Assembly (NCBI GenBank): GCA_018992565.1
Contig: JACVGW010000015.1
Location: 1 to 41,151, forward strand
Direction of reading: 5' to 3'
From: Theionarchaea archaeon
GTDB taxonomy: Archaea > Methanobacteriota_B > Thermococci > Methanofastidiosales > SZ-28-30
Length of the DNA: 41,151 bases
Part shown: positions 2,035 through 11,603 of the stretch, one piece after another
Numbering within the stretch: position 1 is the first letter of the stretch
How the letters are laid out: every line of letters begins with the position of its first letter
The notes under the pieces: generated by a model
Databases searched by the model: none
What the model was told of the DNA's origin: nothing
Seen by the model: the letters and a program-made list of their open reading frames with translations, nothing else
Made by a program: the position numbers and the translations under genes

Positions 2035-3402
2035 TCAACAATAGTGAATATGATATGGCCCAGTATCTTTTGCCCCTTCCAAAATGAGATACTTGTGCCA
2101 CCATTTGCAGAATTCGCACATGGGATCAATTGCAGTCATATCTCCATACGAGAAATGTGCTGTGGCAGCACATCCCGCCCCACATATGTTCCTCCAGTTA
2201 CATGTCCTGCATTCAGGGATTGTATCTACTCGTGTGCAGACTTTTTTCCTGATTTCGAGAAATCTCGTTCCTTCCCGGATGGACTGTATATCCTCTTCTG
2301 TGACATTTCCAATAATTGCATCTGCCCCATCAAAGAGCTGACAGGGATAGACATTTCCAGCTGAATCAATCCTCAATTCTTGTCCCATATTGCAGATACG
2401 AACTTTTAATCCCACTGCAGGTGCTGCTTTGTCCTCGATTTCTATGACCTCCAGGGTTCCTTTCAGGTCTTTTCTCGCTCTGTAGACTTTCTTCTGGAAC
2501 TGGATTGCTTCTTCAAGACTCAGACCCAGAGTATTCCATATCGGGACTGCCCTCCCCTGATGGTACACTTTTGAGAAAATGACTTCATTGATACCCTTAC
2601 CAAGACAGAAGTCAATCATTGTATCCACTTCTTCAACATTCAGTCTGCTTGCTGTAAAGGAAATGCGCATATTCTTCTTCAATCCCTGATCTAGAAGATT
2701 ATCAATGCCCTGTATTGTCCTCTTGAATGCACCCTTTCCCCGTATGCTGTCATGGACTTCTTCCTGCGTGCTATCCAGGGAGATCTGCAGAGTCATATCC
2801 TGCTGACGATACCCGGCCAGAAGAGCTGCTGTATCCTCATCAATGAGTGTGCCGTTGGTAGCTATTGTCGTCTTGAGGTTGTTCTCCAGGGAATACTCCA
2901 GGAGCTCATCCCATCCCTTCCTCATCAGTGGTTCTCCGCCGCTGATGTAGATGGACCATCCTTTGACTGCCACCAGATAGTCAATGCACTCTTTGATTTT
3001 TTCCAGAGATATCTCTTCCCTGCAGGCCCGGCCTGCATTCACATCACAGTGGATACAATGCAGGTTGCAGCGCGACGTGATCTCGAAGTACAGATTCGTC
3101 AAGGGAGGTAGTGATGGAACATTCACAGACAACCCCTCAAAATGAGGCGAATCAAAAGCAATGATAAGACTCTTTCTCAGGTAGCGAACAATGGTGAGAA
3201 AAGTATCAAAAGAAACCTCTGACTTCACCTGCTCATAAATGTGCTCCAAGGTACACCTACCATTGCACAGCTGAAGAATTCTATATCCCATCTCATCCAA
3301 CATGCACCACGATGGAATATGAGGGTTGAGGATGAAATTCATGCCATTCTCCTTGAACAGCAGCGCACCCTCAATTTGGCACGGTTTTTTGCCTATATCC
3401 AC
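2035..3402 (-). CDS. Radical SAM/SPASM peptide maturase with N-terminal RRE(PqqD)-like domain
   Basis: CNLHCIHC, SGGEP, SPASM cysteines (CNMG...GNVYPC...CRTCNWRNICGAGC...DPMC); N-terminal 'LDEMGYRILQLCNGRCTLEHI' resembles RRE helices. Start re-placed at GTG 3402 (AAGGTG RBS); ORF track extends to 3609. Confidence 0.9.
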   Translation of the reverse strand: MDIGKKPCQIEGALLFKENGMNFILNPHIPSWCMLDEMGYRILQLCNGRCTLEHIYEQVKSEVSFDTFLTIVRYLRKSLIIAFDSPHFEGLSVNVPSLPPLTNLYFEITSRCNLHCIHCDVNAGRACREEISLEKIKECIDYLVAVKGWSIYISGGEPLMRKGWDELLEYSLENNLKTTIATNGTLIDEDTAALLAGYRQQDMTLQISLDSTQEEVHDSIRGKGAFKRTIQGIDNLLDQGLKKNMRISFTASRLNVEEVDTMIDFCLGKGINEVIFSKVYHQGRAVPIWNTLGLSLEEAIQFQKKVYRARKDLKGTLEVIEIEDKAAPAVGLKVRICNMGQELRIDSAGNVYPCQLFDGADAIIGNVTEEDIQSIREGTRFLEIRKKVCTRVDTIPECRTCNWRNICGAGCAATAHFSYGDMTAIDPMCEFCKWWHKYLILEGAKDTGPYHIHYC

Positions 3403-3413
3403 TCTTACACCTT

Positions 3414-3491
3414 CTAGCACGTGAATGCTAGTGGTACGACACTGGAAATCGCGTCGAACGCAGATTTCATAAGGACTATGTCTTCGTCCAT
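3414..3491 (-). CDS. Putative RiPP precursor peptide P4, 25 aa MDEDIVLMKSAFDAISSVVPLAFTC
   Basis: Hand-translated; GAGGTGA RBS, TTTATATA box (3526-3533) with purine-rich BRE; stop 11 nt before the SPASM start; shares MxxAF...C pattern with P1-P3. Confidence 0.8.
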   Translation of the reverse strand: MDEDIVLMKSAFDAISSVVPLAFTC

Positions 3492-3701
3492 TTTTCTCAC
3501 CTCTTTCCCCAGTGTCACGCTGCCATATATAAAGCTTTCTCTTCCAATCTTCCTGACATGTTAATGCGGCAAGAATGACACCAAAAGAAACAAAAGGTTT
3601 CTCACTCAAATCTGGACTGCATCTGAAGTCATTGAGAAGAATTCCTGCAGTCAGAGCCCCGGAGAAGGGTTCAGGGTGACTATTGAGGTCTGTACATACA
3701 T

Positions 3702-4118: not shown

Positions 4119-4209
4119 GGAAACACCATGGATTTCTTCTCCAAGGAGCTTATAAACCTACTCCTTTCTATGAGCGATCTTCAGGAATAATTGGTAGTGG
4201 ACGAAGATG

Positions 4210-4225
4210 CGAAATCCTTTTAAAG
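4210..4225 (+). promoter_or_regulatory. BRE/TATA promoter for C/D sRNA-nop5-flpA
   Basis: CGAAATCC-TTTTAAAG, about 20-25 nt upstream of the predicted sRNA 5' end. Confidence 0.6.
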
Positions 4226-4245
4226 AAAAAAGAAGAGATAGTGTT

Positions 4246-4310
4246 GGTGAGGGATGACGAACAATCTGTCTTTCCGAACGGTGAAGAACTCACGACGAAC
4301 CGACCTCACT
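4246..4310 (+). ncRNA. Box C/D methylation guide sRNA
   Basis: Terminal stem GTGAGG(4247-4252)/CCTCAC(4304-4309); C box ATGACGA 4254-4260; 13-nt spacer; D' CCGA 4274-4277; C' GTGAAGA 4281-4287; 12-nt spacer; D CCGA 4300-4303; size and spacing match archaeal dual-guide sRNAs; sits just upstream of nop5. Confidence 0.8.
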
Positions 4311-4341
4311 CATTTATTGTTTTGGATTACAGGCTGATTGC

Positions 4342-5319
4342 ATGAGTACGGGTTATTTGATAGGCAACTGGAGCCGATTCTACATAGTAGATGAGAATAA
4401 TCGTTCTGTGGCAAAGACAGAGTTTTCAGGCTCGGAGCAGGAATGCACAGAGAAGGTCCGCAACCTGCGGAGAGGTGTTCCACCCCCGGAGATCATCACT
4501 CTGATAGAGGAAGCAGGACCTCTGGTAGAAACACTGGTCGTTGAAGATGATGCACTGGCTAGAACCCTCCAGCAGACTACTGGGTGTACTGTTACTGTGC
4601 CTGCGTCCCCTAACGACATGTTTCGCAGGCTCAGGCTCATGTTCTTCAAGAAAGGAATTCACAGCAGGCATCCTCTGGCTGTCTCCACAGCACGTGAAGA
4701 CAAGAAGGAAGCAGACACACATCCAGACATGCGCATCCTGCGCCTGGTGGACATGCTCACTATGTATGACGAATCATACCAGTTCTACAACAATTTCAAG
4801 GAAACCTGGTATGAGAATAGGTTTTCAGATAAAGAATCCCCCGTAATTCAACCAGACCTCCAGCAGGAAGAGTCAATCGTCAGGAATACGGATGGACTTC
4901 TTGAAGTGGTGTCTGTCCTGCGCAAGAGAACGCGAAAAGCACTGGCTCTTGTGCTGAGAGAATATTCACCAACCCTCTACAACGTAGCTGGACTGGAAAT
5001 TGCTGCCAGGCTCATTGCTGAAGCTGGCTCTCTGGAGAGGTTGGCGACAATGTCTGCCGGGACTATTCAGATTCTGGGTGCCAGGAAGGCCTTCTTTAGA
5101 GCAAAGCATTCAGGATCACCTTTTCCCAAGTTTGGGATCATTTTCTCCCATCCCTATATTCAGGCACTACCCTCTCATCACAGAGGTAAGATGGCCAGAC
5201 TCCTGAGCTGCCAGATTGCCATTGCTGCCCGGGCAGACGTTTACACACACAGAGATATCTCAAGACAGTTGCGATTGAAGCTCAAGAAGAGATTTTACCA
5301 GCTGAGGGGAATACTATGA
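4342..5319 (+). CDS. nop5: C/D box RNP scaffold protein Nop5 (Nop56/58), divergent and short
   Basis: Nop domain 'AARLIAEAGSLERLATMSAGTIQILGARKAFFR...PKFGIIFSHP...RGKMARLL...AARAD'; overlaps fibrillarin start (ATGA). Confidence 0.9.
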   Translation: MSTGYLIGNWSRFYIVDENNRSVAKTEFSGSEQECTEKVRNLRRGVPPPEIITLIEEAGPLVETLVVEDDALARTLQQTTGCTVTVPASPNDMFRRLRLMFFKKGIHSRHPLAVSTAREDKKEADTHPDMRILRLVDMLTMYDESYQFYNNFKETWYENRFSDKESPVIQPDLQQEESIVRNTDGLLEVVSVLRKRTRKALALVLREYSPTLYNVAGLEIAARLIAEAGSLERLATMSAGTIQILGARKAFFRAKHSGSPFPKFGIIFSHPYIQALPSHHRGKMARLLSCQIAIAARADVYTHRDISRQLRLKLKKRFYQLRGIL

Positions 5320-5999
5320 CGCAAGTTTCACACACCACGAACCCCCGTGTTTTCTACATGCTCCAGGGGAGGAAGAAAGTCCTGCTGACACAGGATGCGT
5401 CCCCCGAATATTCTGTGTACGGAGAACAAAAAGTAGAGGCTGATTCACATATCTTCCGAACCTGGGATCCGTACAGGAGCAAACTTGCTTCATCCATCCT
5501 GGAAGGCCTCCCCTCTATACCCATCAGGGAAGAAGATACTGTCTTATACCTGGGAGCTGCCAACGGCACCACTGCCTCTCATATTTCCGACATTGTAGGG
5601 AGTTCTGGAGTAGTTTACTGTGTTGAATTCAGCCCTGTTCCCTTTGGGGATTTAATCCGCCTGGCAGAGCACAGGACAAATATCTTTCCCATTCTGGCAG
5701 ATGCACGTGATCCTGTGCAGTACTCCTTCATGGTGGGGGGAGTGGATGTCCTCTACTGTGACCTGGCACAACCGTCTCAATGTGAGATTGTCCTTTCCAA
5801 TGCAGCCCGCTTCTTGCGGTCAGGAGGGCACCTCCTGCAGGCCATCAAAGCATCTTCTATCGATAGCTCGCTTCCCCCTTCACAGGTATATGAAACAGCA
5901 GTATCTGAACTCTCAAGAGGGTTTGCCATTCGTTCAACAATTCCCCTTGACAGATATCAGAAAAAGCATATCATGGTATGGGGCGTATACGCACCATAA
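5316..5999 (+). CDS. flpA: Fibrillarin-like rRNA/tRNA 2'-O-methyltransferase
   Basis: 'VYGE', 'WDPYRSKLAS', 'VLYLGAANGTTASHISDIV', 'VEFSP', 'NIFPILADAR', 'DLAQP', 'IKASSID' fibrillarin motifs. Confidence 0.96.
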   Translation: MTQVSHTTNPRVFYMLQGRKKVLLTQDASPEYSVYGEQKVEADSHIFRTWDPYRSKLASSILEGLPSIPIREEDTVLYLGAANGTTASHISDIVGSSGVVYCVEFSPVPFGDLIRLAEHRTNIFPILADARDPVQYSFMVGGVDVLYCDLAQPSQCEIVLSNAARFLRSGGHLLQAIKASSIDSSLPPSQVYETAVSELSRGFAIRSTIPLDRYQKKHIMVWGVYAP

Positions 6000-7513: not shown

Positions 7514-8896
7514 TTATAGCAGCACATCCTCAATGGAGGCTGCCAGATACAGGATAGCTTCAAGAATCTCCTTATAGCTCATCCAATCAGTCTCCAAGGA
7601 AGGTCTTCCTGATAGCGACTCAGAATTCTCCCACCACCTTCCCAGAGGACGCACTCCCAGCTGGTCTCCTTCCTTCCACACGGGAGAGTCAGGATAACAG
7701 GTTAAGGCTGTAACATTGACCATCTCCAGTTCCATTTTCCGCACAAAGTCAATCGTATCATCAATTTCCTTCAAGGTCTGTTTGGGCAGTCCGACAATAA
7801 GCCCTGTCCTGATGGTCATGCCAGCGTCGCGGGTCAGCCGTAAGGCAGTCTCGATGTCTTCCAATTTTATGTGTTTTCTGCATGCATCGAGAACCTTCTG
7901 AGACGCACATTCCACTCCGTAGAACATGGAATAGCAGCCTGCTTCACGCATCTTTGAAATGAGCTCAGGGGTTACGTAGTCAGGTCTGGTAATACATGTC
8001 CACTCCACATCAATACCTCTCTCCAGTATCTCATCGCAGATTTGAAAAGCCCGATCCATGTCATAGGTGAAGAATTCATCATGGAATCCAATGAATTTTC
8101 TCCCCTGAGATCGTGCCATTTCCATTTCATCTACAGTGCTCTGTGCTGACCTGCCTCTCCATGTATTACAATACATGTGCGAATTGTGACAGAAAATGCA
8201 TTTATATCTGCATCCCCTGGAGGAAATTATCCAGTAAACATCTCCTGGATATCCTGTCTTCTTCATGTATTCCAAGAGCTTGAGCGTAGCAATTCGCTCC
8301 TTTGCATATCCTACCGGGGGTATGAGGTCATACGCAGGGAGCGGTAGTTCATCCAGGCAGTCAGGGAACTCTCGCGGATTGTGGATGACAGATCCATTCG
8401 CCCGAAAAGAGACGTTTGGTATGCCCTGAAGATCACCAAGAGATACCAGCTGTCGTACCAGTTGAATCGCACAAAACTCGGGCTCAACGTGGATGACTGC
8501 GTCAATAGGCCATGTGGACAGCATGATTTCCGATGCCAGGTCGTCCCATGTTCCTTCCACTGCGACTCTCATGTGGGGATGTACCTCTTTGAGAGCCTGT
8601 ATGAGCCGATGTGTGAAGTTGTAGTTGGTATAGTAACCGTAGACTATTGCCACATCATATTGATCTTTGCTCACGGCAACCCGGCAGGAATCAATAACAG
8701 ACTCGGGGGGCCGCAGGGGGAAGGGAGCATTAATACTGGAACGCGGATCTGTGGCCATCTCTTCTGCGGACACGTATCCATTCAAATCGATTGCATCAAA
8801 AGGAATGCCAGCCTGGCGCAGCAGTGATGCTACGTACATGAACGGAAAGGGTGGACACTTGGGTCGAGTTGGCGTGTGGAGCAGAAGCACCTTCAT
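7514..8896 (-). CDS. B12-binding domain radical SAM enzyme
   Basis: N-terminal Rossmann-like B12 domain; 'SSRGCRYKCIFC', 'DEFFT', 'WTCITR', 'GVEC'. Confidence 0.9.
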   Translation of the reverse strand: MKVLLLHTPTRPKCPPFPFMYVASLLRQAGIPFDAIDLNGYVSAEEMATDPRSSINAPFPLRPPESVIDSCRVAVSKDQYDVAIVYGYYTNYNFTHRLIQALKEVHPHMRVAVEGTWDDLASEIMLSTWPIDAVIHVEPEFCAIQLVRQLVSLGDLQGIPNVSFRANGSVIHNPREFPDCLDELPLPAYDLIPPVGYAKERIATLKLLEYMKKTGYPGDVYWIISSRGCRYKCIFCHNSHMYCNTWRGRSAQSTVDEMEMARSQGRKFIGFHDEFFTYDMDRAFQICDEILERGIDVEWTCITRPDYVTPELISKMREAGCYSMFYGVECASQKVLDACRKHIKLEDIETALRLTRDAGMTIRTGLIVGLPKQTLKEIDDTIDFVRKMELEMVNVTALTCYPDSPVWKEGDQLGVRPLGRWWENSESLSGRPSLETDWMSYKEILEAILYLAASIEDVLL

Positions 8897-10023
8897 GATT
8901 TCACCTCCTGTGTTCTTGATGGAAAGACTGGGTCCATTCTCTCAAATGTGAGTGAGTATCTGCAGGGGCCTCCACAGACAGTCACATATTTACATGACTC
9001 GCACGTCCGTGTGCACGGCTCCTGCGTATAGGTAAGAAGGCTTTGATATATATTTTTTTCGGAACACTGCTCAAGGTTGGAGAGAATGTAGGGAGGGCTT
9101 CTCAAGCAGGTACATGGAGTAATATCAAAGGTGGGCAGAACCACAATCTTGAACCTTCCTCCAATGCAGCCAAAAAACCGATTTTGTTCTGTTGTATCTG
9201 GTTTCTTATGTTCAAAGAAACATTCCGGGAAGCAGAAAACATCTTCGACAAAGATGGGGGTCTTGTACTGGTTTTGCAGAGAAGAAATCTCTGATGAAAG
9301 CGCATAGTAATCTGGTCTGCTCAATCTGAGTTCAGATGGGGCATTCCCTGTTATTCTTACATTATGATATTCTACACCTGACACACCAATGCGACATACT
9401 CTTTCCATAATATCTGTCACCTGGTGCTTGTTATGCTGGGTCAACGTGCACAGTGTGGTAGTGTCGACACCGTGGGATACCAGAAGATGCAGTGCGTCAA
9501 TGACCTTTCTCAAAGACTCGGGCGAGGCATTAATCCCTTCAAAAAGTTCATCTGCAGCGTCCAGGCTGACAGATGCATCAATCCCCAAGTCTGCCAGAAG
9601 TCGAGCGTGCTCTTCTGTGAGGAGAGTCGCATTGGTAACCAGGTCAAGATCCCACGAATACTGACTCATATACTCCAGAAGATGCGTGATGTCACTCCGT
9701 ATTAAAGGCTCCCCACCGCTTATGAAAATCTTCTTGAAGTGCATACGGTGCAGCTTGTCCACAGCATCAGCCAGTTGATCAAAAGTAGGATGTCCTGCAG
9801 GTGAGACTGCATAGCAGTATTCACATCGGAGGTTGCATCGTGAGGTAACCTCAAACCACACCTTAAATGGTAGGAGTATGTCTGCATGTTCTGTTTGAAG
9901 TTCTTCTCCCTGGTACGTACAGGGGAGGACAAACTGATTTCTGTAGATGTGACCCTCTTCAGTCTCGAACCACCAGCATCCATAGTCTTTGACTTTGCGG
10001 ATTCTCGGCATCATATCTCTCAA
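8893..10023 (-). CDS. Radical SAM/SPASM-domain enzyme
   Basis: CNLRCEYC, SGGEP, C-terminal 'CIGGR...ITPC...CESCKYVTVCGGPC'. True start may be the ATG at 10014 or 10011. Confidence 0.9.
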   Translation of the reverse strand: MRDMMPRIRKVKDYGCWWFETEEGHIYRNQFVLPCTYQGEELQTEHADILLPFKVWFEVTSRCNLRCEYCYAVSPAGHPTFDQLADAVDKLHRMHFKKIFISGGEPLIRSDITHLLEYMSQYSWDLDLVTNATLLTEEHARLLADLGIDASVSLDAADELFEGINASPESLRKVIDALHLLVSHGVDTTTLCTLTQHNKHQVTDIMERVCRIGVSGVEYHNVRITGNAPSELRLSRPDYYALSSEISSLQNQYKTPIFVEDVFCFPECFFEHKKPDTTEQNRFFGCIGGRFKIVVLPTFDITPCTCLRSPPYILSNLEQCSEKNIYQSLLTYTQEPCTRTCESCKYVTVCGGPCRYSLTFERMDPVFPSRTQEVKS

Positions 10024-10199: not shown

Positions 10200-11603
10200 T
10201 TGAAAGTGGTACTCTGTAATCCGCCCCAGCCCGTGTCGTTTTTTCCAAAGATCCCCCCCTTGGGGATTGCCTACCTGGGTGGCTTGCTTCGAGAAAACGG
10301 GCACGATGTGGTGTTGTACGATCTTAACATACGCCTTGGCAGTCCTATCACTCACCAGGACATCACAGACGTTGTAAAGGACATTGCAGATGATGAACCT
10401 GATATCCTGGGTGTGTCCTGCTGGGCCATGTGCATGCCCTTTGTTTCAGAATTTGTTCAGCAGTATAAACTGGAAAATGATGGGCTGGTTTTACTGGGGG
10501 GGCCGTATCCGTCGCTGGCTCCTGTTGAGACTGTCCGTGGAATTCCTGCTGACTGCTGCGTGGTGGGGGAAGGTGAACTTCCCTTGCTGGATATTGCCAG
10601 AGCTCCCCAGAACCTGGAATCTACTGAAAATGTCTGGATTCACAAAGAAGGTACTCTCATACAGAATCCGCGCCGTTCTGACTTCTATCCTCTGGATGAG
10701 CTTCCCTACCCTGCACTGGACCTGCTCCCTCCTATCGAAGCATACCAGAACATGCAGGATGACTACTGGTACATGGAAGCGCCCACATATGAGTTCCCCA
10801 TCATGGGGAGCAGGGGCTGCCCTTACAGGTGTGCTTTCTGCTCCACCCGGAAGATATGGACATCCCACAGGCGAAGAGACCCGGAGAGCATCGTAAAAGA
10901 AATCAAGCAGCTTGCCAGAGAGTATGGAGATATTTTCATTGATTTCCAGGATGATATGTTCACTCTCAGCAAGGCCTGGGTTTCATCCATTTGCAGGAAC
11001 CTGCGCTCTGAAGGCATAACTGCAGCATGGAGCTGCTGCACCAGAGTGGATTGTGTGGATGATGACATCCTCTCCACAATGAAAGCTGCAGGATGCACCA
11101 ACATTGACCTGGGAATCGAATCAATCAATGATCACGTCCTTGAGTATATCCGCAAAGGGTACACTGCAGCAGATGTCAGGAGAGGGCTTTCTGCCATTAC
11201 CGACCACGGGATCCAGGCCGAGACGACGTATATTGTGAACCTCCCTGTTGAAACGAAGGAGGATATTATGAGGACTATAGATTTTGGAGAAGAAAGCCTG
11301 AAAGAGGGAGTATCTGAAGTGACGTTTTATTTACTGACACCATACCCGGGAATTGACCTTCTAGAAGAGCACACAATTGAGTTAATGCCATCTCCTTACA
11401 GGGACAACCTGCTCAAGTACGTAGCAGGATTTTCCAGGAATCCTGAGCGTTATGATGATCCCTTCTGGCTCCCTGAAGCTTTTACTATTGTCAATCCGTC
11501 CTTGACTCAAGATGACTTCTGGGAAGTGTTCGAAAGAATACATGCTATTAACGCAACATTTCCACCATATCCATTGTCTTTCTACAAGGGTGAGAGAAAA
11601 TGA
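10200..11603 (+). CDS. B12-binding domain radical SAM enzyme
   Basis: 'PPLGIAYL', 'GGPYPS', 'VGEGE', 'SRGCPYRCAFC', 'DDMFT'; GAGGTGA RBS before TTG. Confidence 0.92.
   Translation: MKVVLCNPPQPVSFFPKIPPLGIAYLGGLLRENGHDVVLYDLNIRLGSPITHQDITDVVKDIADDEPDILGVSCWAMCMPFVSEFVQQYKLENDGLVLLGGPYPSLAPVETVRGIPADCCVVGEGELPLLDIARAPQNLESTENVWIHKEGTLIQNPRRSDFYPLDELPYPALDLLPPIEAYQNMQDDYWYMEAPTYEFPIMGSRGCPYRCAFCSTRKIWTSHRRRDPESIVKEIKQLAREYGDIFIDFQDDMFTLSKAWVSSICRNLRSEGITAAWSCCTRVDCVDDDILSTMKAAGCTNIDLGIESINDHVLEYIRKGYTAADVRRGLSAITDHGIQAETTYIVNLPVETKEDIMRTIDFGEESLKEGVSEVTFYLLTPYPGIDLLEEHTIELMPSPYRDNLLKYVAGFSRNPERYDDPFWLPEAFTIVNPSLTQDDFWEVFERIHAINATFPPYPLSFYKGERK

Follow-up and report, generated by a model that had tools for sequence, protein, structure and literature searches.

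Positions 4247 to 4309 of the window (the whole 41,151-nt stretch of DNA that was analysed) probably encode a dual-guide archaeal box C/D sRNA that acts on helix 93 of the organism's own 23S rRNA through the mechanism proposed below. The element has the anatomy of such RNAs, both of its spacers are complementary to helix 93 well in excess of chance, and it is conserved at two other loci. As a guide RNA it is of a known type; what distinguishes it is that both its C.C kink-turn and its association with a second, divergent Nop5-fibrillarin pair have been conserved.

A four-box sRNA upstream of nop5-2

The features considered here are given below, all on the plus strand. LSU numbers refer to the organism's own 23S rRNA. 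L069 and L070 are two metagenome contigs obtained in a scan with an alignment of Nop5-2 and protein cluster P0001; together with the window they provide the three homologues.

4219..4224, plus strand: TATA-like box TTTAAA, about 25 nt before the 5' stem, a putative promoter element
4247..4309, plus strand: box C/D sRNA with terminal stem, four boxes and two guides
4247..4252, plus strand: 5' half of the terminal stem, GTGAGG, complement of 4304-4309, invariant in the three homologues
4254..4260, plus strand: C box AUGACGA (consensus RUGAUGA, C for U at position 5), identical in L069 and L070
4261..4273, plus strand: D' guide ACAATCTGTCTTT, 13 nt, matching LSU 2652-2662 in the 3' strand of helix 93, N+5 at A2655
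4274..4277, plus strand: D' box CCGA (consensus CUGA), CCGA in L069 and a degenerate CCTA in L070
4281..4287, plus strand: C' box GUGAAGA, of which TGAAGA is invariant in the three homologues
4288..4299, plus strand: D guide ACTCACGACGAA, 12 nt, matching LSU 2645-2654 in the 5' strand and loop of helix 93, N+5 at U2648
4300..4303, plus strand: D box CCGA (consensus CUGA), invariant in the three homologues
4304..4309, plus strand: 3' half of the terminal stem, CCTCAC, pairing with GTGAGG, invariant in the three homologues
4342..5319, plus strand: nop5-2, 325 aa (Pfam Nop domain, E 6.8e-32; weak Nop5 N-terminal domain)
5316..5999, plus strand: fib-2, 227 aa (Pfam Fibrillarin, E 1.2e-77, full length)

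The arrangement is that of archaeal box C/D sRNAs: C and D boxes flanked by a terminal stem, D' and C' boxes joined by a short loop (3 nt), and spacers of about 12 nt, the D' spacer having 13 rather than 12. Both arms, moreover, can form 9 bp or more with a stable RNA and have their N+5 nucleotide in a Watson-Crick pair. The terminal stem (GUGAGG/CCUCAC, 6 bp) is present in the predicted folds of all three homologues. Six of the seven consensus letters are found in the C box and three of four in the D box, and the GA dinucleotides are intact in all four boxes. The deviating letters of the C and D boxes oppose each other, forming a C.C where box C/D kink-turns usually have U.U. The terminal motif thus has C.C at 3b.3n; the internal motif has A.C there, and the tandem G.A/A.G pairs are kept.

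D and D' boxes of the CCGA type are printed for Ignicoccus sRNAs, for example IHOsR157, in the supplement of Dennis et al. (2015, PMC4644070), so the variant boxes of the window are no bar to membership of the class. The possibility that such boxes are a habit of this genome was rejected, other convincing sRNAs of the assembly (on contigs C137 and C13) having the canonical AUGAUGA and CUGA. A strict four-box pattern in which the window's variants were allowed matched three times in the 2.8-Mb assembly. Of these three full four-box matches two are convincing, and a looser scan added one C/D candidate whose C' box is degenerate.

Rfam gave no match anywhere in the window at gathering thresholds, and ARAGORN found no tRNA in it. 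Under permissive settings six archaeal CD-box families matched weakly over 4250-4305 (sR41 over 4250-4294, sR44 over 4250-4300), five of the six along the whole length of the model (1-55 of 55 or 1-56 of 56). The best of these matches, sR3, scored 12.9 bits (E 0.36) against a gathering score of 41. Since all Rfam scores (sR3, sR9, sR60, sR41, sR39, sR44 and others) lie below gathering, the sRNA falls outside every catalogued sequence family.

Both guides match helix 93 of the organism's own 23S rRNA

The genome assembly to which the window belongs (G000; 154 contigs, 88% complete) contains one 23S and one 16S rRNA gene, both on contig C127, with the 23S rRNA at C127:55076-58068 on the minus strand. 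Positions 2-11 of the D guide form 10 contiguous Watson-Crick pairs with LSU 2645-2654, and positions 2-12 of the D' guide form 10 Watson-Crick pairs and one G-U pair with LSU 2652-2662. The two complementary stretches adjoin and share 3 nt (LSU 2652-2654). Counting five from the D box leads to LSU U2648, and five from the D' box to LSU A2655; both nucleotides are Watson-Crick paired to their guide, as A-U and U-A pairs. E. coli numbering was assigned by motif alignment to the E. coli line in the supplement of PMC4644070, with C2606 as anchor; on this basis U2648 is the equivalent of U2593 and A2655 that of A2600.

The initial annotation, made from the letters of the window alone, had quoted the two guide strings, which are indeed present at 4261-4273 and 4288-4299, and had proposed that both are complementary to the helix 93 segment, with adjacent, partly overlapping targets and N+5 sites at about U2593 and A2600. 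The own 23S rRNA bears out each of these points, including the caution that box-proximal bases might not pair: position 1 is unpaired in both guides. Only the expected match lengths, 9 nt for the D guide and about 6-7 for the D' guide, fell short, the actual matches being longer, at 10 and 11 pairs. The match to the own rRNA is longer than that to the E. coli sequence because helix 93 has a U-A pair here where E. coli has A-U.

When both guides were ranked against the 23S rRNA, the 16S rRNA and 31 tRNAs of the organism, as the initial annotation had advised, the helix 93 duplexes came first for both. Duplex energies were -17.9 kcal/mol for the D guide, against -13.0 at its next site, and -16.2 kcal/mol for the D' guide, against -11.3; no better target for either guide was found in these RNAs. 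Their significance was assessed with composition-preserving shuffles of the guides against the same 6,896 nt (23S, 16S and 31 tRNAs). A Watson-Crick run of at least 10 that included guide position 5 arose in 287 of 20,000 shuffles of the D guide and 264 of 20,000 of the D' guide, and runs of at least 9 for both guides within 100 nt of one another in only 2 of 20,000. A looser test with G-U pairs allowed gave 15 of 1,000 for the D guide and 120 of 1,000 for the D' guide, being weaker for the latter, which is U-rich. Across the genome, exact 10-mer matches occurred at about the random rate, and the sole longer match was an 11-mer at C69:35, within an open reading frame.

A GUGA loop, three upper-stem pairs, a bulged A (the equivalent of A2602) and four lower-stem pairs make up the predicted fold of the rRNA segment. 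LSU U2648 pairs with A2655 in this fold, so that the two predicted methylation sites form a single base pair. The D guide spans the 5' strand of the helix and the loop; the D' guide runs from the last part of the loop along the 3' strand.

The guides follow a family-specific rRNA variant

The helix 93 pair at E. coli positions 2590:2604 is U-A only in the family of the window's host (f1), in all four genomes for which the sequence was found, that is, G000 and three other members. Elsewhere the pair is A-U (3/3 in f2) or C-G (14/15 in f3 and all six found in f5); the single exception in f3, a fragmentary, 69%-identical match in G033, reads A...A. Both guides match the U-A form, and hence track the family-specific variant of the rRNA. 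The same fact bears on the candidate explanation that the window's contig (C49) was misbinned, which was rejected: its GC content is 0.476, its tetranucleotide correlation 0.982 (median 0.984), and its guides match the rRNA variant of the family.

A guide with the same aim occurs on a different RNA. The sRNA at C137:3565-3619 of G000, with canonical boxes (AUGAUGA, CUGA, UGAUGA, CUGA), is kept in 30 of the 41 genomes of the order, and in 29 of these 30 its D guide reads (C/G/T)AGATGGGC(GG); its best match in G000 is SSU 1343. In the version carried by G003, a member of the same family and another genus that is without nop5-2, this D guide is replaced by TAATCTGTCTAA, followed by CTGA. The replacement forms 9 contiguous Watson-Crick pairs (positions 3-11) with the 3' strand of helix 93 in G003's own rRNA, in the same register as the window's D' guide and with the A2600 equivalent at N+5. 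The presence of the same guide on two unrelated scaffolds within one family argues, on comparative grounds, that it is the A2600 site and not a particular RNA that is under selection.

The distribution of the element is nonetheless patchy: the sRNA pattern was found in 1 of 133 genomes of the phylum. Two genomes of the same genus, G001 (91% complete) and G002 (84% complete), yielded no boxed helix 93 guide. A search of 40 relatives for the D guide followed by a D box gave a sole match, in G016, with a mismatch in the box and at the level of the reversed-pattern control. In five Thermococcaceae genomes, guide patterns against the inner strands of helix 93 matched 14 times, in no case with a C or C' box.

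In L069 and L070 a homologous sRNA lies upstream of a homologous nop5-2, in the same place as in the window. In a three-way alignment the D' guide core, CAATCTGTCT, does not vary, and neither do the terminal stem, the C, C' and D boxes or the TATA-like block. The D' guides of L069 and L070 keep 10 Watson-Crick pairs, at positions 3-12, with the 3' strand of helix 93. Their D guides share just the 5' part (TCACGA) with that of the window and diverge next to the box, leaving at most 7 contiguous pairs in the rRNAs of G000. Judged against the G000 rRNA, therefore, the U2593 target is not conserved across the homologues. The spacers of L069 measure 11 nt (D) and 13 nt (D').

These comparisons invite the view that only the D' guide methylates, at the A2600 equivalent, and that the D guide is a chaperone-like helper arm or is drifting. 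The D' guide is kept in all three cassette homologues and recurs in G003, whereas the D guide is good only in the window; moreover, double guides with one arm that pairs and probably does not methylate are described in PMC4644070, where chaperone roles are proposed. Such a division of labour is unlikely, if by no means negligible. In the window it is the D guide that makes the better duplex, with its 10 Watson-Crick pairs at positions 2-11, its -17.9 kcal/mol and a paired N+5 nucleotide, and the U2593 equivalent (alignment U2867) is itself a predicted site in the supplement of PMC4644070, given there for an sR17 in two species columns. The preferred reading remains that of two active guides.

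A divergent second nop5-fibrillarin operon

The nop5-2 gene starts 32 nt downstream of the sRNA, and fib-2 overlaps it by 4 nt. G000 possesses a second intact nop5-fibrillarin operon, on contig C76, orthologous to the sole copy found in G001, of the same genus. Identity to the C76 pair is 29% for Nop5-2 and 45% for Fib-2; to the proteins of L069 it is 54.5% and 71%, respectively. In 37 of 40 relatives a Nop5 match was obtained, and Nop5-2 was at most 42% identical to any of them. Among 1.84 billion representative proteins the cluster closest to Nop5-2 is P0001 (55%), the next reaching 35%. In PMC7608942 fibrillarin is described as an archaeal single-copy gene; of 148 species analysed, 140 have it, and 3 of these carry duplicates. 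A gene for L7Ae is also present in G000, on contig C131.

The Nop5-2 protein, P0001 and the L069 protein read GARKA at a motif that reads GAE.. in 128 of 134 motif-bearing phmmer matches. The site of this Nop5 GAEK motif, GARK in Nop5-2, adjoins the box pair that is C.C in the present sRNA, and one may speculate that the Nop5-2 motif and the C.C variant of the RNA are co-adapted.

The flanking genes differ between the window and L069 and these three persist, so that the conserved unit consists of the sRNA, nop5-2 and fib-2. No four-box C/D sRNA was found at the C76 nop5 locus of G000, nor at 29 nop5 loci of 29 relatives. A scan of genome contigs with the window's Nop5 gave no match, and one with P0001 retrieved only a distant Woesearchaeota Nop5 (38%, L068), without an upstream sRNA. 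Viral contigs contained neither a relative of Nop5-2 nor a match to the 5' half of the sRNA; a virus-borne cassette is therefore not supported in the viral collection searched. In a thin search of the literature, no description was found of an sRNA linked to its own Nop5-fibrillarin paralogues.

Promoter, transcription and a possible role in cis

The spacing between the TTTTAAA block and the stem is identical in the window, L069 and L070, and the block itself is invariant. The sRNA of L069 ends about 25 nt before the start codon, and the gap holds a GAGGAGG Shine-Dalgarno sequence and has no room for a second promoter. The conserved spacing of the TATA-like box and this short gap suggest that the sRNA and nop5-2/fib-2 share one promoter. 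The corresponding gap in the window contains a T-rich stretch and another TATA-like motif, so that transcription may be separate or attenuated there.

Two metatranscriptome runs (X19 and X20) yielded four short contigs within nop5-2 and fib-2 (4339-4532, 4431-4580, 4812-5077 and 5259-5438). These contigs, in which DNA carry-over is possible, give a weak hint that the operon is transcribed; the one starting at 4339 cannot define the start of a transcript. Neither run produced a contig over 4196-4338, a result that is uninformative for an RNA of 60 nt.

The position of the element raises the alternative that it is solely a cis-acting leader, whose kink-turn would allow L7Ae, and perhaps Nop5 and fibrillarin, to bind the nop5-2/fib-2 message and control its translation by feedback, without any guide role in trans. 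There are precedents for part of this: the nop5-fibrillarin transcript of Sulfolobus acidocaldarius contains a kink-turn to which L7Ae binds, and that of T. kodakarensis is also reported to have one (Daume et al. 2017, PMC5539422). The short distance to the nop5-2 start codon in the window, the L069 gap with its Shine-Dalgarno sequence and the conservation of the sRNA only along with nop5-2 and fib-2 would all fit. An operator needs no guides, however, yet both spacers match adjacent rRNA well beyond chance and follow the family-specific variant of that rRNA. The four-box layout with spacers of 12-13 nt is typical of a guide RNA, the same guide appears on the unrelated sRNA of G003, and the Shine-Dalgarno sequence lies outside the kink-turn. 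A purely cis-acting leader is thus very unlikely; a regulatory role may exist on top of guiding. That an intergenic stretch should combine box-like motifs and rRNA-like complements by accident is scarcely credible: the box motifs are short, and a loose half-site scan gave 125 matches in the genome against 50 in its reverse, but the strict pattern occurs only three times in 2.8 Mb, the joint guide statistic is 2 in 20,000, and the element and its boxes are kept in two other contigs whose protein genes are just 54-71% identical.

Proposed mechanism

The best reading of these data is that an ordinary guide mechanism (L7Ae, a Nop5 dimer, two fibrillarins and the N+5 rule) serves two sites that make an unusual pair, the sRNA probably being expressed together with a private set of Nop5 and fibrillarin. 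We infer that the sRNA is expressed, is bound by these proteins and directs methyl transfer. Transcription would begin near the 5' stem from the element's own TATA-type promoter, placing the sRNA in the 5' leader of the nop5-2/fib-2 message or directly before it. L7Ae would then bind the kink-turn of the terminal C/D motif and the kink-loop of the internal C'/D' motif, after which a Nop5 dimer and two fibrillarins, possibly the neighbouring Nop5-2 and Fib-2, would assemble. On unfolded pre-23S rRNA, the D guide would bring the ribose of the U2593 equivalent (LSU U2648) into a fibrillarin active site, and the D' guide, paired to the 3' strand, would similarly place that of the A2600 equivalent (LSU A2655).

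Full engagement of both guides at the same time is impossible because their target stretches overlap. This overlap, and the inability of either guide to pair with the folded helix, point to sequential action on unfolded precursor rRNA: the two methylations would be made one after the other before helix 93 folds, and the RNP may keep the helix open for a time.

Comparison with known guide RNAs and kink-turns

Helices 90-93 are an archaeal hotspot of C/D-guided methylation (Dennis et al. 2015, PMC4644070). Position C2606 (alignment 2880), at the foot of helix 93, is targeted in all six thermophiles of that study, and the D and D' guides of P. calidifontis sR30 are directed at alignment C2880 and C2864, on both strands of helix 93. 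The supplements consulted from that study, which list predicted sites for seven species, give the G2599 equivalent for an Ignicoccus sRNA and contain no entry for the A2600 equivalent. Guides of the sR30 type resemble the present sRNA in their four boxes, spacers of about 12 nt, N+5 rule, nearby sites in one rRNA and choice of the peptidyl-transferase-centre hotspot. In contrast to the guides of that catalogue, among which C2606 at the base of helix 93 is the widely shared target, the window sRNA is directed at U2593 and A2600 near the tip, its target stretches overlap, and its target nucleotides pair with each other; its host, too, differs in being of a mesophile-type lineage with very few sRNAs.

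Like the kink-turn in the nop5-fibrillarin transcript of S. acidocaldarius (saci_1347/1346; PMC5539422), the window sRNA puts a motif of the L7Ae-binding type in physical linkage with the operon, and by analogy such a link could offer a feedback route between the supply of guide RNA and protein and the synthesis of the RNP proteins. Unlike that kink-turn, it comprises a whole guide RNA, both spacers of which are complementary to rRNA, it precedes the divergent second operon only, and its binding of L7Ae is a prediction.

C/D sRNA genes that are co-transcribed with protein genes, or lie within 25 nt of them, are known (Tripp et al. 2017, reviewed by Breuer et al. 2021, PMC7994747). A location on the 5' side of an open reading frame is known as well but rare, 7% overlapping a 5' end in the figures of that review. 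As in those cases, the sRNA could be matured from a longer transcript while shielded by its proteins. What is different is that the genes downstream of the present sRNA code for the very proteins of the sRNP, and that the linkage is kept across lineages with differing flanks.

The two kink-turns of the sRNA are like other box C/D variants in that only 3b.3n varies, being C.C in the terminal and A.C in the internal motif. Under the rule of McPhee, Huang and Lilley (2014, PMC4382518), a C at 3b permits folding in metal ions alone, whereas standard archaeal box C/D kink-turns are reported to need L7Ae. The C.C kink-turn of the window is accordingly predicted, by analogy, to fold by itself without protein.

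Significance

A guide RNA against the hotspot of helices 90-93 would, by itself, be a good but ordinary find. Here it occurs in an organism with few sRNAs, and the two methyl groups that it is predicted to direct would fall on nucleotides that pair with each other, at a distance of two nucleotides from the catalytic A2602. The divergent Nop5-fibrillarin pair that travels with the guide RNA suggests that C/D RNPs may specialise through protein duplication, as with eukaryotic Nop56 and Nop58. With one RNA, two protein pairs and a 22-nt hairpin as substrate, it would also make a simple test system for how Nop5 paralogues discriminate between kink-turn variants.

A stronger, rather improbable proposal is that of a methylation cassette, self-contained and transferable, made up of the sRNA, Nop5-2 and Fib-2; the private pair would be co-adapted to the C.C kink-turn and dedicated to U2593:A2600 beside A2602. 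Thiostrepton producers use 2'-O-methylation of rRNA for self-resistance. If the cassette proposal were true, an accessory, patchily distributed rRNA-modification module could by analogy tune the ribosome or protect it against inhibitors of the peptidyl-transferase centre.

Each of 18 DNA runs contains at least half of the sampled words of the stretch. In two strain-level DNA contigs, the region 4196-4341 shows no differences, against 9 in the protein genes. The window's cassette lies among radical-SAM genes; that of L069 does not.

Small RNAs apparently directed at the catalytic centre

Outside the window, the genome carrying it encodes a canonical dual-guide C/D sRNA that is kept in 30 of 41 genomes of the order:

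Contig C137, 3565-3619 (L147:1500-1554), + strand: canonical dual-guide C/D sRNA

Its D' guide forms 10 Watson-Crick pairs with the 23S rRNA at LSU 2559, a residue that, on numbering inferred through the UGUCGG motif, would be equivalent to E. coli U2504 in the peptidyl-transferase centre. Because this guide pairs at the peptidyl-transferase centre, the few sRNAs of this lineage seem to be concentrated on the catalytic centre. The order-wide sRNA was also found with its D guide exchanged, in a genome of the same family but of another genus (G003):

G003, contig C23, 14376-14429 (L146 / L091), - strand: order-wide sRNA with swapped D guide

In G003 alone, a guide against helix 93 occupies the place of the usual D guide, in a register identical to that of the D' guide of the window sRNA. 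It exemplifies how a guide can be replaced while the sRNA scaffold stays the same.

Further candidates were seen in the genome of the window and in the window itself:

Contig C13, D-like box near + coordinate 6509, minus strand: candidate C/D sRNA
Window, about 11447-11476, + strand: single half-site
Window, about 25150, - strand: single half-site

The C13 element, a likely third C/D sRNA of this genome, has canonical boxes (ATGATGA ... TTGA ... TGATAGA ... CTGA), a 5-bp terminal stem (GTGCA/TGCAC) and one guide matching the 16S rRNA near SSU 900. Both half-sites consist of TGATGA, a stretch of 12-14 nt (9 nt of which are complementary to rRNA) and CTGA, without a second box pair. They are probably due to chance, since such matches also arise in a reversed-genome control, at about 40% of the rate.

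Relatives and surroundings of the cassette

Metagenome contigs contributed the following features:

L070:846-910 and L070:933-2319: second metagenome copy of the cassette
L069:1669-1679: D guide, AATCACGATCC

The L070 copy is 92-95% identical to that of L069. Its D' box reads CCTA rather than CCGA, and about 266 bp are absent where nop5-2 ends and fib-2 begins. The copy may be in decay, or the assembly may be at fault. For the L069 D guide, no contiguous target was found in the rRNAs of the window's genome. One possible reading of the complement of AATCACGATCC is that the outer 6 nt of the 5' strand of helix 93 directly abut the outer 4 nt of its 3' strand, with the 9-nt tip left out. The resemblance may be coincidental, or the guide may be what a small deletion left of a window-type guide.

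Radical-SAM genes lie on both sides of the window cassette; one of them carries a SPASM domain and another a B12-binding domain:

Window 2035-3609, - strand: radical-SAM gene
Window 7514-8896, - strand: radical-SAM gene
Window 8893-10023, - strand: radical-SAM gene
Window 10200-11603, + strand: radical-SAM gene

As the L069 cassette lacks such neighbours, the adjacency of these four genes is probably accidental.

An N-terminal motif, GY[FL]xGxW, is common to Nop5-2 (window 4342-5319), its close relative P0001, P0002, P0007 and P0046, and the GAEK glutamate is absent from the first four. The shared motif and the loss of the glutamate hint that a wider subfamily of divergent Nop5 proteins exists in uncultured archaea.
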